Below are positions 4,809 to 48,655 of a stretch of 50,169 bases of DNA, in pieces. Position 1 is the first letter of the stretch, and each line of letters begins with the position of its first letter. Position numbers and translations under genes: made by a program. The notes beneath the pieces are model-generated. The model saw only the letters and a list, made by a program, of their open reading frames with translations. It had not been told where the DNA came from and did not search any database. Origin of the DNA: a virus; IMG/VR virus record IMGVR_UViG_3300037311_000346; one strand, 5' to 3'.

Positions 4809-6298
4809 GACGGTTCGCCCTCCCGACCTTCGTCGTCGTAGTCGCCGCTGGCGATGCGCTGCTCCGCCTCGTCCGCCTCGCTGCGCGTCGGCTCCGGCTC
4901 GCGCTGTCGGCGCGCGCGAGCCTTCTTCGGCGTGCCCTCGATCGCGCGAGCGACGCCGTCCTCGATGACGATACCGGGCCCGTGCTCGTCGGGCTGGTCG
5001 TCGACGAGGACCATCAGGAGCTGGAAGCCCTGCTCCTCGATCATCTGCCGGACGCGAGCCCGGTTGAAGCTGTCCAGGCGGTTGCCGTCGTCGACGCGCA
5101 GCAGGCGGAGCTGCGGTGCACTCGCCATCGCGACTCCGAGCCCGACCACGATCCGCTCCTCTCCCGATGCCGACGAGGGGAAGGGTCGCCCTTTGTAGGT
5201 GAGCCCGTCCTCGTCGAAGGCCAGTCCCTCGACCGGCATCCGCACCTCGGCCAGCGTCGTCGCGAGGAGCTGGTCGATCGCCGCCAGCGCGGCCGTGTGG
5301 CGCTCGACGACGGCCCTGGCCGCGTCGCGTTTCACTCGCTCGGCGCGGACGCCAGCGACGAGCTCGGCGTTCGCGGCGAGGTCTCGCATCGCCTCCGCGC
5401 GCTGGCGATGCTCCTCGGGGGAGCCTGCCGCGGCCGCTGCGAGGTCGGCGGCGTCCGCGCGTCGCGTCGCGTCTTCGAGCATGCGCTTCAGGTTCTCGAC
5501 GGTCTCGCGCGCCATCTTCGCGGCCGCCTGAGCGTCGCGCGCCCGCTCGTAGGCGGTCGTCGCGTTGCGCAGCTCCTCGCGCGTGATCGCCGGCGCGTCC
5601 GCGGCCCCGGTCGGGACGCGCTCCTCCAGGGCGCGCACGGTCGCGTCCGCGTCCGCGAGACGCCGGCCCGCGACCGTGCGCATCTCCGCCACGGCCTTCT
5701 TCGCCTTGCTGATCACGTCGAGGGCGTGCCCGCGCTCGTCGGCGGCAAGGTCGAGCGGCCCGAGGATGTCGCGCAGCTCCTCGCGCGGTACGCGCGGCGC
5801 GACCGCTTCGACCAGCGCGTCGCGCTGCTTGCGGCGGCCTTCGGCGCCGCGCTCTCCGAGCTCCACCCAGGCGAGCGGGTCGATCGCCACGCGCGAGAGT
5901 AGGCCGTCGAGCAGCTCCTGCGGCTTCGGGACGCGCTCGCCGGTCGCCCAGCGGACCGTGAGGCTCGTCGAAACGCCGCCGTCGTCGGTGCGGCGCCAGC
6001 GCCTCGTGACGATCAGCGCGCCGAGGTTCACCTCGGACTCGGCCTCGCGCTCGCCGGCGCGAATCGCGTCCGGGCGCGGCGCGCCCTGCAGCGTCTCCCA
6101 GATCGCGTCGAGGAGCGAAGTCTTGCCCTGCTCGTTCGCGCCGCGGACCTCGATCAGCCCGTTCGGGCCGAACTCCAGGTCGACGGCGGAGAGGCGGCGG
6201 TAGTTGCGGACCCGAAGGCCTCGCAGGAAGAGAGGGTCTCGGCGGTTGCTCGCGCCGTTGCGCGAAGCGCCGAAGAGGTCGGCGGCGGACTCGGTCAT
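4805..6298 (-). CDS. SMC/SbcC/RecF-like ABC-type ATPase with a central coiled coil
   Basis: LRGLRVRNYRRLSAVDLEFGPNGLIEVRGANEQGKTSLLDAI (Walker A). Long Ala/Glu/Arg-rich helical middle region. SSASGEERIVVGLGVAMA (signature-like). LLRVDDGNRLD (Walker B). Confidence 0.75.
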   Translation of the reverse strand: MTESAADLFGASRNGASNRRDPLFLRGLRVRNYRRLSAVDLEFGPNGLIEVRGANEQGKTSLLDAIWETLQGAPRPDAIRAGEREAESEVNLGALIVTRRWRRTDDGGVSTSLTVRWATGERVPKPQELLDGLLSRVAIDPLAWVELGERGAEGRRKQRDALVEAVAPRVPREELRDILGPLDLAADERGHALDVISKAKKAVAEMRTVAGRRLADADATVRALEERVPTGAADAPAITREELRNATTAYERARDAQAAAKMARETVENLKRMLEDATRRADAADLAAAAAGSPEEHRQRAEAMRDLAANAELVAGVRAERVKRDAARAVVERHTAALAAIDQLLATTLAEVRMPVEGLAFDEDGLTYKGRPFPSSASGEERIVVGLGVAMASAPQLRLLRVDDGNRLDSFNRARVRQMIEEQGFQLLMVLVDDQPDEHGPGIVIEDGVARAIEGTPKKARARRQREPEPTRSEADEAEQRIASGDYDDEGREGEPS

Positions 6299-25800: not shown

Positions 25801-26494
25801 CGTTGTAGCCGATCGCGGAGGCTCCCGGAGCGGCCTGCGCTCCGACGGTCTGAGCGACCGGCTCCTGCCAGACGGTGTCGCGGACCTGCGCGAGGACGTG
25901 CGCCGTCGAGAGATCGTCGGAGTCGACGAGCAGCCGGAAGGTCACCGGCTGGAACATGCTGCCCTCGTACTCGAGGAGCGCGGCGGTCTCCGCGAGCACC
26001 GTCTCGGCGTTCGTCGTCCCGTTGTACCGCGTCAGCTTGAAGCGGAACTGCCCCGGCGTGCCGAGGCCCTGCGCGTAGAACAGGAGCGCGCTCTGGCAGT
26101 CGGCGAACGCCGCGTAGCCGTTCGTCGAGCTCGACGTCGGGCCTCCGCACGCGACCCGGGCTGCGACGCCCATCTTGCGGACGTTCGCCGTCGTGATCGT
26201 CCCGAGCGCCGTCGCCCACTGGAGCGAAGCCTGGACGTCGACAAGCCGGCCGAGGTTCTCGATCCAGGGGACGATCGCGCCGTTGAGAGGCGTGAGGAAG
26301 CTCGGGTTCGGGTTGGCGAAGAGCACGCCGCCGAAGCCCAGCACGTCGAGGCCGGAGATCGGGACCGCCTCGACCCAGCCGTTGGCGGTGCCGACGTCCA
26401 TCCGCAGCCCGAAGTAGAGCGCCGGTAGCGTCGGCATCCCGGAGGAGGCCGTGAAGTCAGACCACGAGAGATCGCGCGGCAGGCCGGAAGCCAT
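22847..26494 (-). CDS. Giant tail protein (1215 aa) occupying the gpM/distal-tail position
   Basis: Track ORF 22847..27298 trimmed to ATG 26494, which shares 1 nt with the TMP stop. Normal composition throughout. Internal LRWAG / LWLAVP / LLVYVERGHEPW pattern. The last ~86 aa resemble the 32063..32413 product. Confidence 0.7.
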   Translation of the reverse strand: MASGLPRDLSWSDFTASSGMPTLPALYFGLRMDVGTANGWVEAVPISGLDVLGFGGVLFANPNPSFLTPLNGAIVPWIENLGRLVDVQASLQWATALGTITTANVRKMGVAARVACGGPTSSSTNGYAAFADCQSALLFYAQGLGTPGQFRFKLTRYNGTTNAETVLAETAALLEYEGSMFQPVTFRLLVDSDDLSTAHVLAQVRDTVWQEPVAQTVGAQAAPGASAIGYNVGPIDAGSALVRLSRNAFHGALPWVSETAAGAKNLVDNGTPVAQDANGMPTAVASGQRIATALFRGHLAAGVDSSPLPSYRAGTYFVEWTGGPVTWEVANDGASLVQLASGRISFEVATPSADGVHLAIVALTPSDPPTGLRCYHEDDEGAIDSSIWDIAAAEELGIHNRVLRWAGALRVETSEAEDFADLAPDGSLFWTGAAGVPLGQVLAFSSFFARDLWLAVPERLTDAALESVFARVRDELDPSLLVYVERGHEPWRAAYQEDLPTNPGVWVPVAGAGLSALEAWKRGNDATPHGSVTDGQVIGTPLDADPEVAQWMGAGQLAEEVFAIARETFDVDAQLGRLRFVVSTRASETDVTEAVLGTAPSAQIVALACQVPDFDEAMVDLTDTPEDIVAALDAERATTAGHVAAQRALLQASYGLGLAAYALGPRLTPADSTELANALGAMGHADMEALVVALFADWVAASDGGLAVYETSHQIGSVAGGVRGARRYVGESTSTAKAAAGLVQAAGASIVAGDGAAPRGPTPVALNPTPGYQVVEAEEWTTVFEADLTGGQYPSGVDAVAVVGDLLQLVNGNTAAYGALCSSFRVLDGDSEDLLWADDWTGRVGSLCRVRSVLGVFWRDFSSAFPGDAGGYGLQLVPGYGLAYDAADEAIAVASANTPGRELYQRPADSLKSQRRVGTFVFSTGATTGVAGLIARGVYLSGSPGTFVGYRLELKLAAGVFSGELWRLGADLVDVRLATFSAAGVAIETPVDLEMTVYDQLFDGSDGPVVIEGKLNSTPIAFDVQPVEGVTTLGTAARVVDRSAQRIVAGREGIVLEPGGTVRCRAWVQLDLVTEDVIPIEDVPSLPWPAENDGPVETVALSPSWEAVRIATSRGAQSSMVSGRYRRGSMQTRVRDGWTLTGFVSGAELAALQAQFDRLGSETPFNLDAGDALEFLSARKYVFASPSIRAERVASQSGSQVYRVEMAVQEVLNGS

Positions 26495-29175
26495 CAGACC
26501 CTCCCGATCGCGCGCCGGAAGCTCGCGTCCGTCGTGAGGCGAGCGGCGATCGTGCGGACGAGGCCGCCGGCGTTGCGCTCGAAGACGCGCGTCGCGTCTG
26601 CGCCGTCGAGCGCCTGGACCGTGACGTTCATCTGGAGAACGATCGGCGTCCCGCGGCCGCCGCCCTTGAACTCGACCGGCACGGCGCCGTTGGGCATCGG
26701 CACGATGGCCTCCTCGTGCTGGCCCTCGCCGGCGACGAAGAGCTGCGGCGACGAGACGACGCCGCCGCCGGCGTAGGCGTGGAACGGCAGCCCCTGAGCA
26801 GCGGCGAGCGCGGGACCGTTGGCGAGCGCCGAGAGTCCCTGCCCCACGGGCTCGACGGGCCCCGAGGCGACGCCGCCACCCGCGAAGCCGAAGACGCCGA
26901 AGAGGCCGTTCAGGCTCCCGCCCGTCAGGCCGCCGATGACGGCCGCCTGGATCGCCGCGCGGATCAGGTCCGCGAGGATCGCCTGCGCCAGGTCGCGCAC
27001 GTTGATCGCGGCGAGGTCGGCCGAGAGCGCCGCCTCGGCGAGCGCGTCGGCGAAGCCCCCAACGGCTCGATCGCCGACTCCGGCCAGGGCGCGGCCGAAC
27101 TCGCCGGTGGTCGCGGTGCTCCGCGCCTTCGCCTCCTCCTCGCGCTCGACGCGGTCGACGAGCAGCAGGAGCCGGTCCGCCTGCTCGGCCGTCAGCCGGT
27201 TTTCGGCCGCGAGCAGCTCGAGCCGCGAGCGTTCGGTCGCCGCCCACTGCTCGATCGCCGCGATCTGCTCGTCGACGGTCGGCGTGACCCGCCCCCACAG
27301 CTCCTGGTACTCCGCGGCGAAGAGCGCCGACTGCGCCGCGGCCTCCTGCTGCGCCGCCGCGGCGCGCGCGAGGACGCGCTCCGTGACGTCGGCCAGGACC
27401 TCCAGCGGCGAACGCGCTACCTCCAGGCCGGCCGCCACGCCCTCGCCGACCGCCTGTCCGATCGCCTCGCCGCCCTCGCGAGCTGCCGCGCGCTGCCTTT
27501 CGAGGCCCTCGAGGATCGCGTCGGTGTCGCCAAACGCCGAGAACGCGCCCGCCAGGGCGTCGAAGCCGAACCCCGAGACCAGCTCCTCCCGGAGCCGGGC
27601 CAGCTCAAGGGTCCTCGGGAGGATCGCCGCGCCGACGCCATCCCGCGTCGCCGCCGCGCTCCGAGCCGCCGCGTCGGCTGCCTCCTCGGCGCGATCGGCG
27701 AAGCCGAGCAGCTCGTCCTCGAAGCCGCGGATCTGCTCGCGCAGCCCGTCGGAGAAGTTGGACGGCGGCGAAGCTCCCAGGGCGCGTCGGGTTTCCTCGA
27801 TCAGGCCGACCGCCCGGCGCACGTTCTCCGCCAGCTCGTCCCGACCGAGAAGCTCGGCGGCGGCGCCGGCCGCCCGCAGAGCGTCCACCTGGAGCTCGCG
27901 GTACTGCTCGAAGACTCGCGGGACCTCGCCGGCGAGAATATCGACGAGCGACTCGAGGCCCGCGACGAACACTCCGACCCCAGCCGCGCTGAGCGCCATG
28001 GCACGCGCGAACGTCGCCACGCGCTCCCTTGCGCCGGACTCGAGCAGCCTGAAGAACGCCTCGAGGTAGCCCGAGAGCGCCTCGGCCGCAATCTCGAGCT
28101 GCAGGAAGACGGTCCGGCCGAAGAGCCCGAACCCTCGGAGCGCGAACTGCGCGACCTCCGCCGCGCCAGCGATCCGCACCATGACGACCTCGATGCCGCC
28201 GGCCTCTTCGATCCACGCCGCAGCAACGCGCGCGGCCTCGCCGAAGCCGACGATCACGGTCTCCGCGCCGCGCGTGACAGCGTAGAGGCCGACCTCGATC
28301 AGCTCGAGGACCTGGTCAAGGCCTCCGAGATCGCCAACGGCCGACTGCAGCGCGAGCACGAGCTCGCGCCCGAGCTTGGCGGTGAGGTCGTCGACCGCCG
28401 CTTCTCCGGCCTTCAGCATCTCCTCGAACTCGTCTCCCGATCGCAGCGTCTCGCCCTGCGCGTCGGCCGTTTGCCGGAGGATCACGGACAGGCGCGCCAG
28501 GACCTTCTCCTGCTCCGTCGCCGCGTCGACGCCTCCGGCGATGCCGCGCGCAAGAAGCTCCGCCTCCAGCGCCTGCGGCTTGATCACGGCTCCGTAGCGC
28601 CGAAGCGCCTCGGCCGACCCCTGCAGCGCCGCGCGGAGGGCCTCGTACGCCTCGGCGTCCGTCGCGTCGTTGAGACTCGCGATGTCGATCGCGAGCTGCG
28701 TCGCGACGAGCGACAGCTCCGCCGCCTCGTCTCGGGCAAAGCCAAGGGGCACAAACGCGTTCCCGAAGTCGCCGAGGGCGAGCTGGATCTCGCGGAACGA
28801 CCGCTGGTAGGTCGACGCCAGCGCCCGCGCGCGCTCCTCCTGCTCGTCGGCGAACTCGCCGAACACCACGTTGAACTTCGACGTCGCACCCTCGGCGTCG
28901 AGGGCCGCCTTGACGAAGCCGCGGCCGTAGGCGATCGAGGCCGCAGCGCCAACGGTCGTAACGGCGGTCGCGGCGATCGCGGCCGTCCGCGCGATGGACA
29001 CGAGCTCCGTCGTTGCTACGCGCGCGAAGGTTACGAACGACAGCGCAGACCGATCGCCGGCGCGCGCGATCGTCTGCGCTGCGCCCGTCGCCGTTTGCCC
29101 GAGGCTCTGCAGCGCCTTCTCGGCGTTGCCCGTCGCGCGCAGCTCGATCAGGAAGGTCTCGGTGGCCTGAACCAT
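26494..29175 (-). CDS. Tail tape measure protein (893 aa)
   Basis: Ala/Leu/Glu-rich helical protein with hydrophobic AIAATAVTTVGAAASIA. Positioned after the chaperone pair. Gly-rich C-terminus. Confidence 0.85.
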   Translation of the reverse strand: MVQATETFLIELRATGNAEKALQSLGQTATGAAQTIARAGDRSALSFVTFARVATTELVSIARTAAIAATAVTTVGAAASIAYGRGFVKAALDAEGATSKFNVVFGEFADEQEERARALASTYQRSFREIQLALGDFGNAFVPLGFARDEAAELSLVATQLAIDIASLNDATDAEAYEALRAALQGSAEALRRYGAVIKPQALEAELLARGIAGGVDAATEQEKVLARLSVILRQTADAQGETLRSGDEFEEMLKAGEAAVDDLTAKLGRELVLALQSAVGDLGGLDQVLELIEVGLYAVTRGAETVIVGFGEAARVAAAWIEEAGGIEVVMVRIAGAAEVAQFALRGFGLFGRTVFLQLEIAAEALSGYLEAFFRLLESGARERVATFARAMALSAAGVGVFVAGLESLVDILAGEVPRVFEQYRELQVDALRAAGAAAELLGRDELAENVRRAVGLIEETRRALGASPPSNFSDGLREQIRGFEDELLGFADRAEEAADAAARSAAATRDGVGAAILPRTLELARLREELVSGFGFDALAGAFSAFGDTDAILEGLERQRAAAREGGEAIGQAVGEGVAAGLEVARSPLEVLADVTERVLARAAAAQQEAAAQSALFAAEYQELWGRVTPTVDEQIAAIEQWAATERSRLELLAAENRLTAEQADRLLLLVDRVEREEEAKARSTATTGEFGRALAGVGDRAVGGFADALAEAALSADLAAINVRDLAQAILADLIRAAIQAAVIGGLTGGSLNGLFGVFGFAGGGVASGPVEPVGQGLSALANGPALAAAQGLPFHAYAGGGVVSSPQLFVAGEGQHEEAIVPMPNGAVPVEFKGGGRGTPIVLQMNVTVQALDGADATRVFERNAGGLVRTIAARLTTDASFRRAIGRV

Positions 29176-29178
29176 GGG

Positions 29179-29625
29179 CTACTGGGGAGGCTGGAGCCTC
29201 TGCCGCTTCTCCGCGAGGATGCGGCCGCGCTCGAACTCGAAGGCGCGCAGCCCTTCGAGCCAGGCCGGGTCCTGGTCGCGAAGGCCTCCGGCTCTCGGGA
29301 GGATCGCCGACTCGACGGCAAGGCGCCACTCGCGAGCGAGCTCGTGCACCACGCGCGAGACCGCCATGGTCGGGCAGCGGTGATAGACCACCTCGCCCGA
29401 CGGCGCGCCGTTGGTCGAGCACCGCCCGCAGGCGACGCCGACGTCGACGAAGCGGGAGCCGTAGCACCGCGGGCAGGTTGTCGCGAAGACCTCCTGCCCC
29501 TCGGGCGTCGGAGCGTCGCAGCCCCAGGACCGTCGGCGCGCCGCGAACGCCGGATCGCGGCACGTCCCGCACGACGGACTCAGCTCGTCGTTGTACGCGA
29601 GATGGGCTGCGACGAAGGCTCCCCC
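29179..29625 (-). CDS. -1 frame extension of the tail assembly chaperone (gpT-like part of a G-T fusion)
   Basis: The frame is open and GC3-rich from above 29583 down to TAG 29179. There is no ATG/GTG/TTG between 29583 and GTG 29391. It is the -1 frame relative to 29580..30041. Cys-rich: CGTC...CPRC...CGRC...HRC. Confidence 0.6.
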   Translation of the reverse strand, partial: GGAFVAAHLAYNDELSPSCGTCRDPAFAARRRSWGCDAPTPEGQEVFATTCPRCYGSRFVDVGVACGRCSTNGAPSGEVVYHRCPTMAVSRVVHELAREWRLAVESAILPRAGGLRDQDPAWLEGLRAFEFERGRILAEKRQRLQPPQ

Positions 29626-30041
29626 GTTTCGGCCTCCCGCTCGGACTCCTCCGCTCGGATGGCGCGGACGAGCCAGGTCAGGACGTCGAGGTCGAGCATG
29701 CGCTCCAGCGCCTCGCGGGCGACGCGCGGCGCGCCGACGTCGGGATGGACTGCCGTGGGGACGGCGATCGGACGACCCGCGTCGTCCAGCAGGTTGCGGA
29801 TCTCGACCAACGCCGCGGCCGCGGTCTCGACCACGAGCCGGTTGACGGAAGTCTTGATGGCGCGCGAGCGCACGGTCCGATCGTCGCCGATGTCGTGGAC
29901 GAGCTCGGTGCAGCGGTCGTTGAGCAGCGCGACGACCGTCGGCGGGATGCGCTCGACGACGAAGACGGTCTGCTGCTCGGGCGGGAGCGCCGCGTCGTCC
30001 GGGTGGACGAGCTCGCGGCGTTTAGAGGTGGCGGCCCTCAT
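29580..30041 (-). CDS. Tail assembly chaperone (gpG-like, 153 aa)
   Basis: Lies between the major tail protein and the tape measure. Track ORF trimmed to ATG 30041, preceded by GAGGAA. Acidic C-terminus. Confidence 0.7.
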   Translation of the reverse strand: MRAATSKRRELVHPDDAALPPEQQTVFVVERIPPTVVALLNDRCTELVHDIGDDRTVRSRAIKTSVNRLVVETAAAALVEIRNLLDDAGRPIAVPTAVHPDVGAPRVAREALERMLDLDVLTWLVRAIRAEESEREAETGEPSSQPISRTTTS

Positions 30042-30141: not shown

Positions 30142-31572
30142 TCAGACCGCGAGCAGCGCGATCGCGTCGTTGCGGTCGTACTCGTAGGCCTCGAGGTCGA
30201 GCGTCTCGGTCTGCTTCCCGCCGCGGTCGCCGGTGTTCGCCTGGCGGATGACGACGCGGTCCATCTGGAGGATGAAGGCGTTGCCGGTGCCCGGGGTGCC
30301 CCAGCGCGCGTAGAGCGGGAAGTCGGTTGAGGCGGACGCCTTCGCGTAGAGCGCGAAGACCTCCTCGGGGGCCGACTCCGGGTCCGCCGAGCCGGTGATC
30401 GCGCGGCGGCCGGCAATGGCTTCGGTGATCCCCTCCGAGCTCCGCGCGTCCTCGCGCATCGCCAGGCCCTGCCCCATCGTGATCGAGAGCTCCGCGAGCA
30501 CCGGCTGGAACTCCGCGTTCGCGCCCGCCCACAGCGAGGCGCTGACGAAGCGCGGGGGGACCGCGCCCGAGGTGATCGCGACGTCGTAGGGGCCGGCGTC
30601 GGAGATCGAGTGCACGACGCCCTGGAAGGTGAAGCGCGCGCGCGCCGCCTGTCCCGCGCGCGCCACGATGACGCACTCGCCGCGGCAGCCGCGGAGCACC
30701 TTCTGGAGCCCGTCCTCGATGAGACCGATCGTCAGCGAGAGCCCTCCGACGGGCACCTGCGCCGCGGCGGTGGCCGTTCCGGACAGGCTCTGCGTGCGGT
30801 TGTGGATCGTCTCCGAAGCGGAGAAGCCGTCGCCGTAGAGCAGCTCGTACTGGATCACGGCGCTTGTCGCGAGCACCGTCTCGTAAAGACGCGCCACGGT
30901 CCCGGAGGTTGCGCCTTCGAGGATCGAGCCGCCCGTCCACCCCGACCCGCCGACGACGGACGAGAGGGTCATCTGGTAGACGCCGCGATTGACGTCGTGC
31001 CAGGCGTGGCCCGCGTCGCTCGGCGTCTGCGCGGTGATGCCAAGGATGTTGCCCGCGTATTCGCCCCCGGTGTCGGTCAGGAGGAGCTCCTCGTCGGAGG
31101 ACGTGATCGCGAGCAGCTTCGGCTCGTAGTAGAGCAGCGTCTGGGCTGCCCAGCCGTCGAAGACCGACGCCGCGACGCGGCCGACCGCGCCCGAGACGTC
31201 CGCCTGGAAAAGCTTGCCCTGCTTGAAGACCGTGCCGCTGCTCAGGCCGCCGTGCGTGACCTTCTTCAGGGAGAGGCGGATCTTGCCGCAGGCGCGCAGC
31301 AGGTCGTTGAACGGCGGGAGGTCGGTCACCACGCCCGACTTCGGGCCGGAGAGCTCGACCTCGAACGTGATGGTGCCCTGGCGGATCCCCTGGCGGACGG
31401 GGCGCGCGCCGATCGACGGACTCGCGGCCTCGTCCTCGATCTTGCCAAGGTCGAGCGAGATCGACGGGTTGATGACCCGGATGTTCTGCGCCGAGGCATT
31501 GATCGTGCCCGCGGTCCCGGGCTTCGACTCGGTCACGAAGAGGAGCTGCTTGTTGCGGTTGAGGAGTACCAT
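30142..31572 (-). CDS. Major tail (tube) protein with a large central insertion (476 aa)
   Basis: Positioned immediately before the chaperone/TMP genes. No sheath or baseplate genes are present. Normal composition. Confidence 0.7.
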   Translation of the reverse strand: MVLLNRNKQLLFVTESKPGTAGTINASAQNIRVINPSISLDLGKIEDEAASPSIGARPVRQGIRQGTITFEVELSGPKSGVVTDLPPFNDLLRACGKIRLSLKKVTHGGLSSGTVFKQGKLFQADVSGAVGRVAASVFDGWAAQTLLYYEPKLLAITSSDEELLLTDTGGEYAGNILGITAQTPSDAGHAWHDVNRGVYQMTLSSVVGGSGWTGGSILEGATSGTVARLYETVLATSAVIQYELLYGDGFSASETIHNRTQSLSGTATAAAQVPVGGLSLTIGLIEDGLQKVLRGCRGECVIVARAGQAARARFTFQGVVHSISDAGPYDVAITSGAVPPRFVSASLWAGANAEFQPVLAELSITMGQGLAMREDARSSEGITEAIAGRRAITGSADPESAPEEVFALYAKASASTDFPLYARWGTPGTGNAFILQMDRVVIRQANTGDRGGKQTETLDLEAYEYDRNDAIALLAV

Positions 31573-31584
31573 CGGCGTGCCCGG

Positions 31585-32061
31585 TCAGTTGCAGTTGACG
31601 ATCGCGAACGGGTCGGATCGGTTGAGGTGGGTGTGGAGGTCGACCGTCATCACGGCGCCCGCGCGCGGCGCGTCGCCGCCTCGCAGGAAGCGGTCCACGC
31701 GCCGCCACCGCAGATCGAATAGCAGCGTACCGTCGCCGAAGCTCTCGATCGGCTGCAGCCGTTTCTGCACGTCGGCGACGAAGGCGTTGACGAGACTCTC
31801 GCGCCGCGCGGTCTCGTAGTTGACGAGCGTCAGCTCCAGCGCGACTGAGATGACCGCGAGCACCTGGTTGTAAGAGTCCTGGTGGTCGTACGTCGTCGAC
31901 CCCTGGACCACGACGATCGAGACCGGCTGCGAGAGGTAGTCGTTCGCTTCGTCGTAGCGGACCACCTCGGCGACCGTCGTCACGAAGCCGTTGCTCGCCG
32001 TGATGCCCTGCAGGCGCGCGACGAGCGCGGCCATGATCTGCTCCTCGCCGGAGTCTGCCAC
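31585..32061 (-). CDS. Tail terminator / tail completion protein candidate
   Basis: 158 aa, directly upstream of the major tail gene. The assignment is positional only. Confidence 0.45.
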   Translation of the reverse strand: MADSGEEQIMAALVARLQGITASNGFVTTVAEVVRYDEANDYLSQPVSIVVVQGSTTYDHQDSYNQVLAVISVALELTLVNYETARRESLVNAFVADVQKRLQPIESFGDGTLLFDLRWRRVDRFLRGGDAPRAGAVMTVDLHTHLNRSDPFAIVNCN

Positions 32062-45691: not shown

Positions 45692-46089
45692 GGCGCCTCC
45701 GTCGTCGGGGGAGCGGGGAGGGGCTGGAAGTGGGTGGGCGCGGCCACGTCTTCGAAGTCGCTGCGATGCGAGTACGTCAACCAGCACGCGGGGAGTTGGC
45801 CCCAGACCGGCGCGCCCCACCATGCAAGTTGCGGCGCGCCGTCATGCGCGGCGTCGATCACGAGCACGCGCGTCCCGTCCTTCGGCGCCTCGCTGATCGG
45901 CCTCCACCGCGCCCCGTTCGGCACGATGCCGGCGGCGCGCAGGGCGGAGCGGAGCGCGTCTCGCAGGTGCCGTAGCAGCGCCGCATCACCATCGTCCCGC
46001 AGATACTCCGATGTGTCTTCGTAGTGCATCCGCAACACGGCGTGCCGCAGCGCGTCGATCTGCTCATCGCTCCACTCCGTTGCGGTCAT
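45688..46089 (-). CDS. DUF551-like protein
   Basis: ARWRPISEAPKDGTRVLVIDAAHDGAPQLAWW. Confidence 0.55.
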   Translation of the reverse strand: MTATEWSDEQIDALRHAVLRMHYEDTSEYLRDDGDAALLRHLRDALRSALRAAGIVPNGARWRPISEAPKDGTRVLVIDAAHDGAPQLAWWGAPVWGQLPACWLTYSHRSDFEDVAAPTHFQPLPAPPTTEAP

Positions 46090-46283
46090 TGGCTCGTCTC
46101 CGTGCGCTTCGCGAGCGCGGCTTCGAGTTCGCGGATGCGGGCGAGCATATACGGCACGGCGTCGAGTAGCCGCGAACGGCAGTCCCGAAGCTGACCGTAC
46201 CCCTCTGGGTTCGTGATCGCGTCAAGGTCGCGCTCCAACGCCTCCAGGTCGAGCGGCTCGCGCGGGGTGGTGGGGGTGGTCAT
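46086..46283 (-). CDS. Hypothetical protein (65 aa)
   Basis: ATG 46283 overlaps the upstream stop: MTTPTTPREPLDLEALERDLDAITNPEGYGQL... Confidence 0.5.
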   Translation of the reverse strand: MTTPTTPREPLDLEALERDLDAITNPEGYGQLRDCRSRLLDAVPYMLARIRELEAALAKRTETSQ

Positions 46284-46648
46284 CGCTTCGGTTCCTCCAG
46301 CGCGGCTCGGGCGCGAATCATCGCCATGATTTCCTTCACGACCGTCCACGAAATGAGGTGAGGATCATGCCCTTCGAGTCGGTGGTCGCACTTGTGCTCA
46401 CCGATGTATGCGGCCTTCGTCGCGCCGCTCGGTGTGAGCGCCTCCTCCAGCCTCTCGCACCGCGCCTGGGCGGCGGAGAGCGCGGACGGGTTCGCATCGA
46501 CGGACTCTGCGCACTCGACGAGCCGCTTGTCGTAGCAGTCCTCACAGAACGGCCCGACGGCGTTGATGTAGAGCGAGTCGTCGGCGCGGCCAGCCTTGCC
46601 GGTCTCTGCGTCGCACTCGCGACAGTGTTCGCGCTTCACGTCACCCAC
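46280..46648 (-). CDS. Small Cys-rich (zinc-ribbon) protein
   Basis: HCRECDAE...FCEDCYDKRLVEC. The start is GTG 46648 or GTG 46639. Confidence 0.55.
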   Translation of the reverse strand: MGDVKREHCRECDAETGKAGRADDSLYINAVGPFCEDCYDKRLVECAESVDANPSALSAAQARCERLEEALTPSGATKAAYIGEHKCDHRLEGHDPHLISWTVVKEIMAMIRARAALEEPKR

Positions 46649-46826
46649 GGCCCGAGCCTCCCTTCGCGCTGCGCTCGGACACGAGCGGCTCGCCTGTGAA
46701 CACGCGCCCCTCGGCAGCGTACGCGTCCAGCGCAACCTGCACGGCGATGGTGAGGATCCGATCGCGTTCGACGGCATCGGCCTCGGCGTCGTCGGCGTCG
46801 TCGGCGGCGGCGGTCGGGTTGGTCAT
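46641..46826 (-). CDS. Hypothetical acidic protein (61 aa)
   Basis: MTNPTAAADDADDAEADAVERDRILTIAVQVALDAYAAEG... GGAG lies upstream of ATG 46826. Confidence 0.5.
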   Translation of the reverse strand: MTNPTAAADDADDAEADAVERDRILTIAVQVALDAYAAEGRVFTGEPLVSERSAKGGSGRG

Positions 46827-46908
46827 GGTCGAGAGGCTCCTGCGCCTTGGTCGCGGCGCTACTTCTTGACGATATCGCCCGGGCGGCCGCTCGGGAAGAG
46901 CCAGCCGC

Positions 46909-47862
46909 CTACTTCTCGCAAACTTCTTCCCGTTTGCGGCGTCGATCCGGTGCGGCGACGGTCGGCTTAATCTTCTCGACTCGCGGCTCATCCTCGGGTC
47001 TCGGCTTTCGCAGCGAAGGCGACACGATCTTCGGGACGGCCTTGTTCCATTCGACGCGGTGGTGCAGACGGACGTCCGTCCGACCCATCGGTGCGATGTG
47101 AACGCAGGACGGCGCGAACATGACGGTGTAGAAGCTCTTCACGTACGTTCCGGCGGCGAGGTAGAGCTCCGTCGAGCCGCCTGCGTTGCTCTGGGTCTTG
47201 AACTGGTTGAGCTGCAGCGGCATATAGGTGAAGAACAGCGTGCCGAGCCCTCCGAGGCGGACGTAGGTGTTCACGTCCTCGTTCATCCGCCCGACGAACG
47301 AGAAGGGTTTCTCGACGTCGCAAACGAAGGAGTTCATCGCCTTTCGCTTGAGGCGGATATCGGTGTTCCCCTCGGCTCCGCCCATGTGCTCGCCGCCCTG
47401 CGAGATCGCGATGGTCGCGGTCGGCGTCGCCTCGAGGAACTCCACGAGCGCCTCGAACAGGCCGTCTAAGCCGCGGATCGCCCAGCCGTGGTAGCTGGGC
47501 TCGGCGCCCGGCTCGCGCCGACCGACGCGGCGGTAGAGCAGGTCCTGGTAGTCGTCGTCGAGCTGGACGAAGTAGCGGCAGCCAACCGACCGCACGATCG
47601 CGAAGCTTGCGTTCCGCGCGTACACGATCGACCGGCGGTCCTTGAAGTTGTCGCCCTGATCGAACGTCGCGGCGATCTGCTCCTTCGAGAACTGAAGGAC
47701 CGAAGCGCCGAACCGTCGGCGGTACTCGTCGGCGGTCGCGTCCTCGTCGTCGATCACGACGAAGACCTTCCCCGTGTAGCCCGATCGACGGAGGGTTTCG
47801 ATCGTCACGACCCGGTCCGCGCGGCCGTGCGAAAGGATCAGGACGCAGAAGTCGTCACGCAT
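46909..47862 (-). CDS. GT-A-like glycosyltransferase candidate (317 aa)
   Basis: CVLILSHGRADRVVT (first beta strand), VFVVIDDED, YARN, YFVQLDDDY (DxD), GRMNEDVNTY, SNAGGSTELY. Locally lower G+C than the rest of the genome. Confidence 0.6.
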   Translation of the reverse strand: MRDDFCVLILSHGRADRVVTIETLRRSGYTGKVFVVIDDEDATADEYRRRFGASVLQFSKEQIAATFDQGDNFKDRRSIVYARNASFAIVRSVGCRYFVQLDDDYQDLLYRRVGRREPGAEPSYHGWAIRGLDGLFEALVEFLEATPTATIAISQGGEHMGGAEGNTDIRLKRKAMNSFVCDVEKPFSFVGRMNEDVNTYVRLGGLGTLFFTYMPLQLNQFKTQSNAGGSTELYLAAGTYVKSFYTVMFAPSCVHIAPMGRTDVRLHHRVEWNKAVPKIVSPSLRKPRPEDEPRVEKIKPTVAAPDRRRKREEVCEK

Positions 47863-48655
47863 CGGGGTAGTCCTTTCCGAACTGCTCGTCGACGCGAGCG
47901 TTCAACCGCACGAACCCGGAGGCGATCGCGTCGTCGAAGTCGACGATGACGAGCGCCGACCGCTCCATCAGGCGCTGCAGGTCCGGCCCCGCGTGAGCGT
48001 AGAAGTTGGCGATCCGGTCGTAGCGAAAGACGACGTGACGGCGCGCCGCCTCAAGAAGGAACGCCCGGACGTCGTCGGGAAGGTCCGCCTCGCCGATCTC
48101 GCGTGCGAGTTCGTCCGCGCGAGTCCGGTCGAACATCTCGCCGACCGCCGGCGCCGGGCCCGACGGCTCGTAGACCGGCCGCTCGACCTTCTGGGTATAG
48201 GCGCCCTCGCCCGTTCCCTTCGAGCCGCCTTCGAGGCCCTCGAGAATCTCCCGGACGTCGGCGTCCGAGAAGCCGGTCGCCGCCAGCACCTCCGGGCTCT
48301 CGTCGCCAATCGCCGACAGGGTCGCCGCGAGAACGTCCTCGTCCCACTCCGCGAGCTCGGCCGTCCGGTTGTCGGCGATGGCGAAGCCGCGCGCTTCGAC
48401 GCCGTCGAGGTCCGCCGGGACCGTCGCGATGTCGGTCCAGCCGAGCGCCTTCGCGGCGCGCAGCGTCCCGTTGCCGGCGAGGACGACGCCCGACTCCGTG
48501 ACGACGATCGGCTTCCGCTGACCGTAGGCGCGCAGGCTCGCCTTGATCGCCTCGAGGTTGGTCGGGCCGTGCTTCCGGGCGTTCGCCGGGTCCTCCGAGA
48601 GGTCGGCGATCTTGCGGACGCGGATCTCGGAGACGAGGAGCGGTCGGTCGGTCAT
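47855..48655 (-). CDS. ParB-like nuclease (ParB/Srx) domain protein without a recognisable methylase domain
   Basis: VRKIADLSEDPANARKHGPTNLEAIKASLRAYGQRKPIVVTESGVVLAGNGTLRAAKALGW. Track ORF 47855..49375 trimmed to ATG 48655. Confidence 0.75.
   Translation of the reverse strand: MTDRPLLVSEIRVRKIADLSEDPANARKHGPTNLEAIKASLRAYGQRKPIVVTESGVVLAGNGTLRAAKALGWTDIATVPADLDGVEARGFAIADNRTAELAEWDEDVLAATLSAIGDESPEVLAATGFSDADVREILEGLEGGSKGTGEGAYTQKVERPVYEPSGPAPAVGEMFDRTRADELAREIGEADLPDDVRAFLLEAARRHVVFRYDRIANFYAHAGPDLQRLMERSALVIVDFDDAIASGFVRLNARVDEQFGKDYPDA

Follow-up and report, generated by a model that had tools for sequence, protein, structure and literature searches.

The minus strand of a viral DNA stretch of 50,169 nucleotides (nt; IMG/VR virus record IMGVR_UViG_3300037311_000346), which we refer to as the window, very probably expresses a siphovirus-type tail assembly chaperone pair by -1 programmed ribosomal frameshifting. 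The pair consists of a G-like open reading frame (ORF) at 29580..30041 and a cysteine-rich T extension in the -1 frame at 29179..29619, linked by a proposed slippery heptamer, G GGG GAG, at 29619..29625. The frameshift itself and its efficiency are inferred. An initial annotation of the locus had suggested such a G/GT-type shift, and the idea is now supported by relatives in twelve sequence groups, in all of which a G homologue (G alignment A5) is followed by a cysteine-rich ORF in the -1 frame and ten of which have a classical in-frame X XXY YYZ heptamer that aligns with the run of five G residues (G5) in the window.

The G ORF encodes 153 amino acids (aa) ending in ...EAETGEPSSQPISRTTTS, terminates at a TGA at 29582-29580 and is preceded by a Shine-Dalgarno sequence, GAGGAA, at 30050-30045; its coordinates and C-terminal end are as initially annotated. 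Its N-terminal sequence, MRAATSK, is common to the window and to a close relative on a 22-kb metagenome contig (L001). ATG 30098 was considered as an alternative start and rejected because it is without counterpart in L001. As had also been observed, the -1 frame is open across the 3' end of G, and from stop to stop it extends from 30021 to 29179, ending at the TAG at 29181-29179. The lack of ATG, GTG and TTG codons previously described between 29583 and 29391 proves to be part of a longer start-free stretch that runs from 30021 to GTG 29391, which is the first such codon in this frame and lies inside the conserved domain; the only near-cognate candidate is CTG 29583. Taken alone, an open -1 frame carries little weight at 72% GC. 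The G+C content at third codon positions (GC3) in the G frame is 0.87–1.0 down to about 29630 and then 0.6–0.7, while that of the -1 frame climbs from 0.4–0.5 to 0.83–1.0 and stays high until 29179, in agreement with the high GC3 already reported for this segment; the switch falls at about 29620. Together, the GC3 switch and the start-free -1 frame argue for about 145 codons of real coding without canonical initiation. Two other candidate starts were rejected: GTG 29391 as the start of T would delete seven of its eight invariant cysteines, and a 418-aa third-frame ORF beginning at GTG 29572 was discarded, on account of its low GC3, as a high-GC artefact.

The relatives range from 35 to 71% GC and come from metagenomes and from Rhizobium phage L338C. 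They were gathered by word-indexed protein searches and the contigs of the proteins found, by profile-guided metagenome scans, by a scan of viral contigs and by tblastn. A word-indexed protein search returned one close homologue of T, P0003, with 63% identity, on contig L001; the T extension and its L001 counterpart are 63–68% identical. The viral-contig scan with alignment A2 gave 8 loci, several of them on contigs already met in the metagenome scan, and a third word-indexed protein search (alignment A3) added three further proteins only. The tblastn search produced a weak match in cultured Rhizobium phages, in which T is a four-cysteine (Cys4) variant; homology to the eight-cysteine T was confirmed by hhalign (probability 96.8%, E 2.3e-10). 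No match was returned by the viral-contig scan with alignment A1, by genome-contig scans with a single protein or with alignment A2, by an exact-pattern scan of viral contigs for the slip region of the window, or by tblastn of six different eight-cysteine T domains against 50,697 deposited phage genomes.

The slip register is fixed by the relatives. In the window the G5 run occupies 29625-29621 in the zero-frame context GAA ACG GGG GAG. An alignment of the -1-frame products places its GGG GGA exactly against the GGG AAA and AAA AAA codons of the relatives, where the heptamer is G GGA AAG (L002-L005, L006, L007-L009 and L014), A AAA AAC (L010, L012, L016, L017, L019 and L020) or G GGA AAC (Rhizobium phage L338C). 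The G5 run had been singled out initially as the slip candidate, with slip sites in related phages as a comparison to make, and this comparison, with ten groups carrying a canonical heptamer at the same register, shows the choice to have been right. The -1 frame opens just one to two codons before the heptamer in L002 and L019, and the shift site is therefore pinned. In most lineages, the window included, the first cysteine stands 16 residues from the heptamer.

At the nucleotide level, G GGG GAG is a site common to the window and one close relative (L001) only, in which it is identical and lies within a 14-nt invariant block, CGAAACGGGGGAGC. Nucleotide identity between the two peaks at 87–90% over 29636-29592 and is 40–70% in most of G. 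The region 29583..29618 is dual-coding: the G frame encodes an unconserved tail, PSSQPISRTTTS, and the -1 frame a conserved linker, AFVAAHLAYNDEL, and the substitutions that separate L001 from the window alter three codons in the G frame against one in the -1 frame. At 29613-29596 the linker of the window carries the motif (V/L)AAHLA, which is also found in L001, L010 and L012. As this motif lies upstream of CTG 29583, its translation would require a shift no later than 29619. Past the slip site, the G proteins of the relatives have tails of anywhere between 0 and 25 residues, and residues 140–151 of an AlphaFold2 model of G have a predicted local distance difference test (pLDDT) score below 50 and are predicted to be disordered.

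The sequence GGGGGAG itself is not rare. It occurs 6 times in the window, counting both strands, against 11.9 expected, a mild depletion (97 of 100 shuffles reach 6 or more), and its significance lies in position and homology rather than in frequency. The evidence beyond chance is the GC3 pattern, the homology and the comparative register. The site was described from the outset as non-canonical, which is correct, but it is less odd than was thought, as G GGG GAA departs from it in the last base only. That motif (GGGGGAA, called 'fivetwo' in PRFect) is found in about a thousand annotated actinophage (SEA-PHAGES) chaperone frameshifts, where the shift is explained by re-pairing of tRNA-Glu with GGA via a G:U pair (PMC10885494). 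A search of the literature for frameshifting on GGGGGAG gave no relevant result.

We propose that most ribosomes would read G through to the TGA and yield the 153-aa G protein, and that a minority would slip one base back on G GGG GAG, where the zero-frame GGG and GAG codons specify Gly140 and Glu141. Here tRNA-Gly would re-pair perfectly, GGG to GGG, and tRNA-Glu(UUC) could re-pair from GAG to GGA with the middle G:U pair allowed; alternatively, the P-site tRNA-Gly alone would slip. The slipped ribosomes would go on in the -1 frame for 146 codons (29619-29182) to the TAG, and both modes would give a GT fusion of 287 aa. Tandem slippage would create the junction ...ETGE/AFVAAH... (slash at the point of the shift) and the tryptic peptide EAETGEAFVAAHLAYNDELSPSCGTCR, and P-site-only slippage the junction ...ETGG/AFVAAH..., so that the junction peptide expected of GT would be EAETGEAFVAAH... 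or EAETGGAFVAAH.... By analogy with phage lambda, where gpT reportedly recruits the tube protein, G may be the part that binds the tape measure protein and T the part that recruits the major tail protein.

Candidate stimulatory elements accompany some of these sites. A Shine-Dalgarno-like GGGAGG at 29633..29638, 7 nt upstream of the heptamer, is a possible 5' stimulator: L001 keeps the spacing with AGGTGG (5928-5933), the shared pattern being GGNGG, while the encoded G residues differ (REA in the window, KVV in L001) and the bases that differ are third positions of the untranslated -1 frame. Such sequences are, as a caveat, easily yielded by acidic codons. Strong GC-rich hairpins begin 7 nt past A AAA AAC in L010 (1506-1548) and L012 (1503-1540), with z scores of -2.1 and -1.2; 7 nt is the classical spacing of a frameshift stimulator.

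Several observations weigh against frameshifting as the route to T. The heptamer of the window fails the strict X XXY YYZ pattern, its YYZ codon being GAG and not GGN, and GAG read by tRNA-Glu(CUC) would re-pair poorly to GGA. RNA folding downstream of the slip site is not better in the window than in shuffled sequence (z +0.35 and +0.56); the corresponding values for L001 are -0.9 and -1.9. Contig L018 has no recognisable slip motif (GAC GAA ACG GAC CAG GAC TGA). A CTG in the window, or a TTG in L001, overlaps the G stop, and an ATG or GTG follows shortly after the heptamer in several relatives, so that some independent synthesis of T may take place. Contig L018 was also seen to carry a Cys4 T domain in the -1 frame at 745-900, in a frame that opens 6 codons before the G stop, and it shares CGAAACGG with the window; this layout may be an assembly error.

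These start codons raise the alternative that T is a separate protein made without any fusion, by termination-coupled re-initiation at CTG 29583. The candidate start overlaps the G stop as xTGA (CTGA in the window, TTGA in L001), the TTG of L001 is a valid start codon, and many relatives have an ATG or GTG 2–9 codons past the heptamer, with gene callers calling T alone. We nevertheless consider re-initiation in place of the shift improbable. The -1-frame peptide AFVAAHLAYNDE, encoded upstream of the CTG, has been kept in distant relatives and changes more slowly than the G tail that it overlaps, no Shine-Dalgarno sequence precedes the CTG, and CTG is a very poor bacterial start. A start of T's own in relatives, which the initial annotation would have taken as counting against the fusion, is indeed present in several of them, but its position varies across the family whereas the in-frame heptamer is conserved. 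A canonical start before the first cysteine is absent from L006, L007-L009, L017, L018 and the window, with L006, L007-L009 and L017 also lacking any stop-start overlap there, and L001 has only the TTG. The gene caller began the T homologue of L001 at a GTG inside the first CxxC (6001), which cuts off one invariant cysteine. Beside the frameshift, re-initiation may still operate as an additional route.

Two further explanations account for the same reading frames without ribosomal slippage. RNA polymerase might slip on the G5 run and add a base in part of the transcripts, so that GT would arise by standard translation. Transcriptional slippage is known on A6-A7-type runs in other systems, the window site is a homopolymer and some relatives have A6-A7 runs; against this, G5 is shorter than the runs known for productive slippage, long homopolymers are missing from the relatives that carry G GGA AAG, and every lineage keeps the zero-frame X XXY YYZ register, which matters for tRNA re-pairing and not for a polymerase. 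We therefore regard this as very unlikely. Even less credible is a spurious frame break, with a homopolymer misread in what would be one fused G-T gene, or with the chaperone decayed to a pseudogene in a dead element. Some sequencing chemistries are prone to errors in G runs and the source is an uncultured contig, yet L001, an independent assembly from another sample in which 30–60% of neighbouring positions differ, has the identical G5 run and two-frame layout, the -1 layout recurs in every relative group, GC3 is high in both ORFs and the neighbouring structural genes are all intact.

Turning to the proteins, the AlphaFold2 model of G has a pLDDT of 81.6, and its best matches in BFVD are named tail assembly chaperone (E 9e-4, probability 1.00, with a modest template modelling score of 0.53), with several actinophage chaperones following among the matches. 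A Foldseek search of the model against the PDB gave nothing significant, and G had no match in Pfam, PHROG or NCBIfam.

The T extension is composed of a 16-residue linker, an eight-cysteine module (29374..29571) and a helical tail with an LPxxGGxxDQ motif, as we would divide it. CxxC occurs at three places and two further cysteines stand singly, giving C19, C22, C36, C51, C54, C66, C69 and C84 in a numbering that begins with the GGG at 29625 (codon starts 29571, 29562, 29520, 29475, 29466, 29430, 29421 and 29376); the module also contains a WGCD motif at 29526-29515. All eight are invariant in 31 diverse sequences. Three CxxC pairs with extra cysteine and histidine residues had been described initially; the eight cysteines bear this out, and the histidines are not conserved. 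P110, G113 and Q118 are invariant or nearly so, and the C-terminal helical part (29182..29355) carries the ILPxxGGxxDQ motif with its proline codon at 29298. In a HMMER scan of 1.84 billion cluster representatives (50% identity), 1232 clusters matched at E<=0.001, 368 of them at E<=1e-10. The 150 best representatives are 86–168 aa long; 121 of them have all eight cysteines, and in a further 22 the only defect is an N-terminus shortened by the gene caller. No model in Pfam, PHROG or NCBIfam covers T.

The cysteine pattern suggests that T may bind zinc, with the eight-cysteine module most likely forming two nested Zn(Cys)4 sites. C19/C22/C36/C84 would make up the outer site and C51/C54/C66/C69 the inner one, which has the look of a DnaJ/anti-TRAP-type ribbon (CxxCxG...CxxCxGxG) set within a Cys4 core. 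L016, L018 and Rhizobium phage L338C all lack the inner CxxC...CxxC as a unit but retain the outer four cysteines and the helical tail, and this block loss argues for two nested Cys4 sites of which the inner is an insertion. Structure prediction and fold comparison speak less favourably for a zinc module. In the model of T the helical tail is the best-predicted part (pLDDT 86–94, with helices at 91–106 and 120–144), and the putative zinc module is of low confidence (pLDDT 55–68). Foldseek of this model against the PDB gave no fold match, and the resemblance of the family to DnaJ is confined to the motif (E 0.005 to PDB: 1exk, and one of 31 members to PF00684 at E 8e-4); the window's own T protein has no match to PF00684. 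A literature search for a zinc or CxxC extension of a tail chaperone found nothing relevant, and the Rhodobacter phage paper makes no mention of cysteine motifs.

The genes around G and T are those of a siphovirus-type tail module, all on the minus strand. The module starts with a terminator-like gene at 31585-32061, followed by the gene for a major tail (tube) protein of 476 aa at 30142..31572, directly upstream of G, which matches PHROG 290 (tail) at E 8.9e-13. The gene for a tape measure protein of 893 aa lies at 26494..29175, its ATG 3 nt past the T stop, and matches PHROG families 1292 and 1535 and, weakly, Pfam Tape_meas_lam_C. G and T thus sit between tube and tape measure, and the order tube, G, T, tape measure is the same in L001, L010, L016, L019 and L020; in L010 and L016 the gene at the tube position is a Pfam Phage_tube_2 gene. 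By tblastn the tube protein had no match in the 50,697 deposited phage genomes, PHROG 290 being reached only by profile, and judged from these searches the window appears to come from a phage lineage without a cultured relative. GC content is 70–74% throughout the window, save for one 66% stretch at 46001-48000, and there are no tRNA genes in its 50 kb.

The G/GT frameshift itself is not new, being among the most conserved recoding events in phages, and the heptamer of the window departs by a single base from a motif known in actinophages. What is new is the nested eight-cysteine form of T with the extent of its family, the proof by comparison of the slip register, and the link to an unannotated frameshift in cultured Rhizobium phages. 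The eight-cysteine form is absent from Pfam, PHROGs, NCBIfam and the 50,697 deposited phage genomes; no database names the T family, and current gene callers shorten T domains, often starting them inside the first CxxC. The ability of G GGG GAG to take the place of G GGA AAG or A AAA AAC in an unchanged register within one family is natural evidence on which near-cognate heptamers are tolerated. If T does bind zinc, the half of a tail chaperone that recruits the tube would here have a structurally distinct design, and the domain would help to annotate metagenomic phage genomes by the thousand. A fuller picture, which we offer tentatively and would not favour as a whole, is that T represents a large unnamed family (at least 1232 clusters) of zinc-dependent chaperone extensions in uncultured siphophages, built by placing a DnaJ/anti-TRAP-like zinc ribbon inside a Cys4 core; that this metal module, and not a lambda-gpT-like fold, docks the major tail protein on the complex of tape measure and G; and that the fusion is made on the degenerate G GGG GAG, probably by P-site-only slippage, with a Gly-Gly rather than a Gly-Glu junction.

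Known systems share parts of this arrangement. The inner CxxCxG...CxxCxGxG of many T members resembles, in weak matches only, the cysteine-rich domain of DnaJ (PF00684; PDB: 1exk) and anti-TRAP (RtpA; PDB: 3lcz), and the two nested Cys4 sites proposed for T recall the zinc centres of DnaJ; unlike DnaJ, the inner module of T has two CxxC repeats and not four, and there is no J domain. The actinophage GGGGGAA sites have in common with the window a G5 run followed by a Glu codon, a proposed G:U re-pairing and a high-GC background. They differ in the last base, which is G in the window, where tRNA-Glu(CUC) would mispair at the wobble position after the shift, and the actinophage chaperones are proteins unrelated to the eight-cysteine T, six T-domain queries having found nothing in the 50,697 deposited phage genomes.

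Closer in protein sequence are the Rhizobium phages L338C, P11VFA and RHph_I4, which have a homologous T core in the -1 frame after a G-like gene and share the elements CxxC, GC, RCP and ILPxxGGxxxQ. L338C differs in its Cys4 variant without the inner ribbon and in one extra small gene before the tape measure gene. In this cultured phage (vB_RleS_L338C; L029, KF614509.1), 2451-2842 holds a -1 chaperone frameshift site that is unannotated: L338C_031 ends GAC GAG GGA AAC GCG TAA (...TEDEGNA and stop) with an in-frame G GGA AAC, and the -1 frame runs into the Cys4 variant of T. Both L338C_031 and L338C_032 are annotated as 'hypothetical protein', L338C_032 in truncated form, and no frameshift is annotated.

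The overall plan is that of the lambda gpG/gpGT pair, which is said to be produced by a shift at G GGA AAG that is conserved in long-tailed phages. The window G and T have no detectable similarity to the chaperone families of Pfam and PHROG, and the window differs from lambda in its heptamer, G GGG GAG, and in having an eight-cysteine domain as T; to our knowledge, lambda gpT is not known to bind metal. The G model resembles, with modest scores, proteins named tail assembly chaperone, T occupies the -1 frame without a start of its own, the slip site is near the G stop, the gene order of tube, G, T and tape measure is the same, and the lambda heptamer G GGA AAG is itself used by relatives within the T family of the window.

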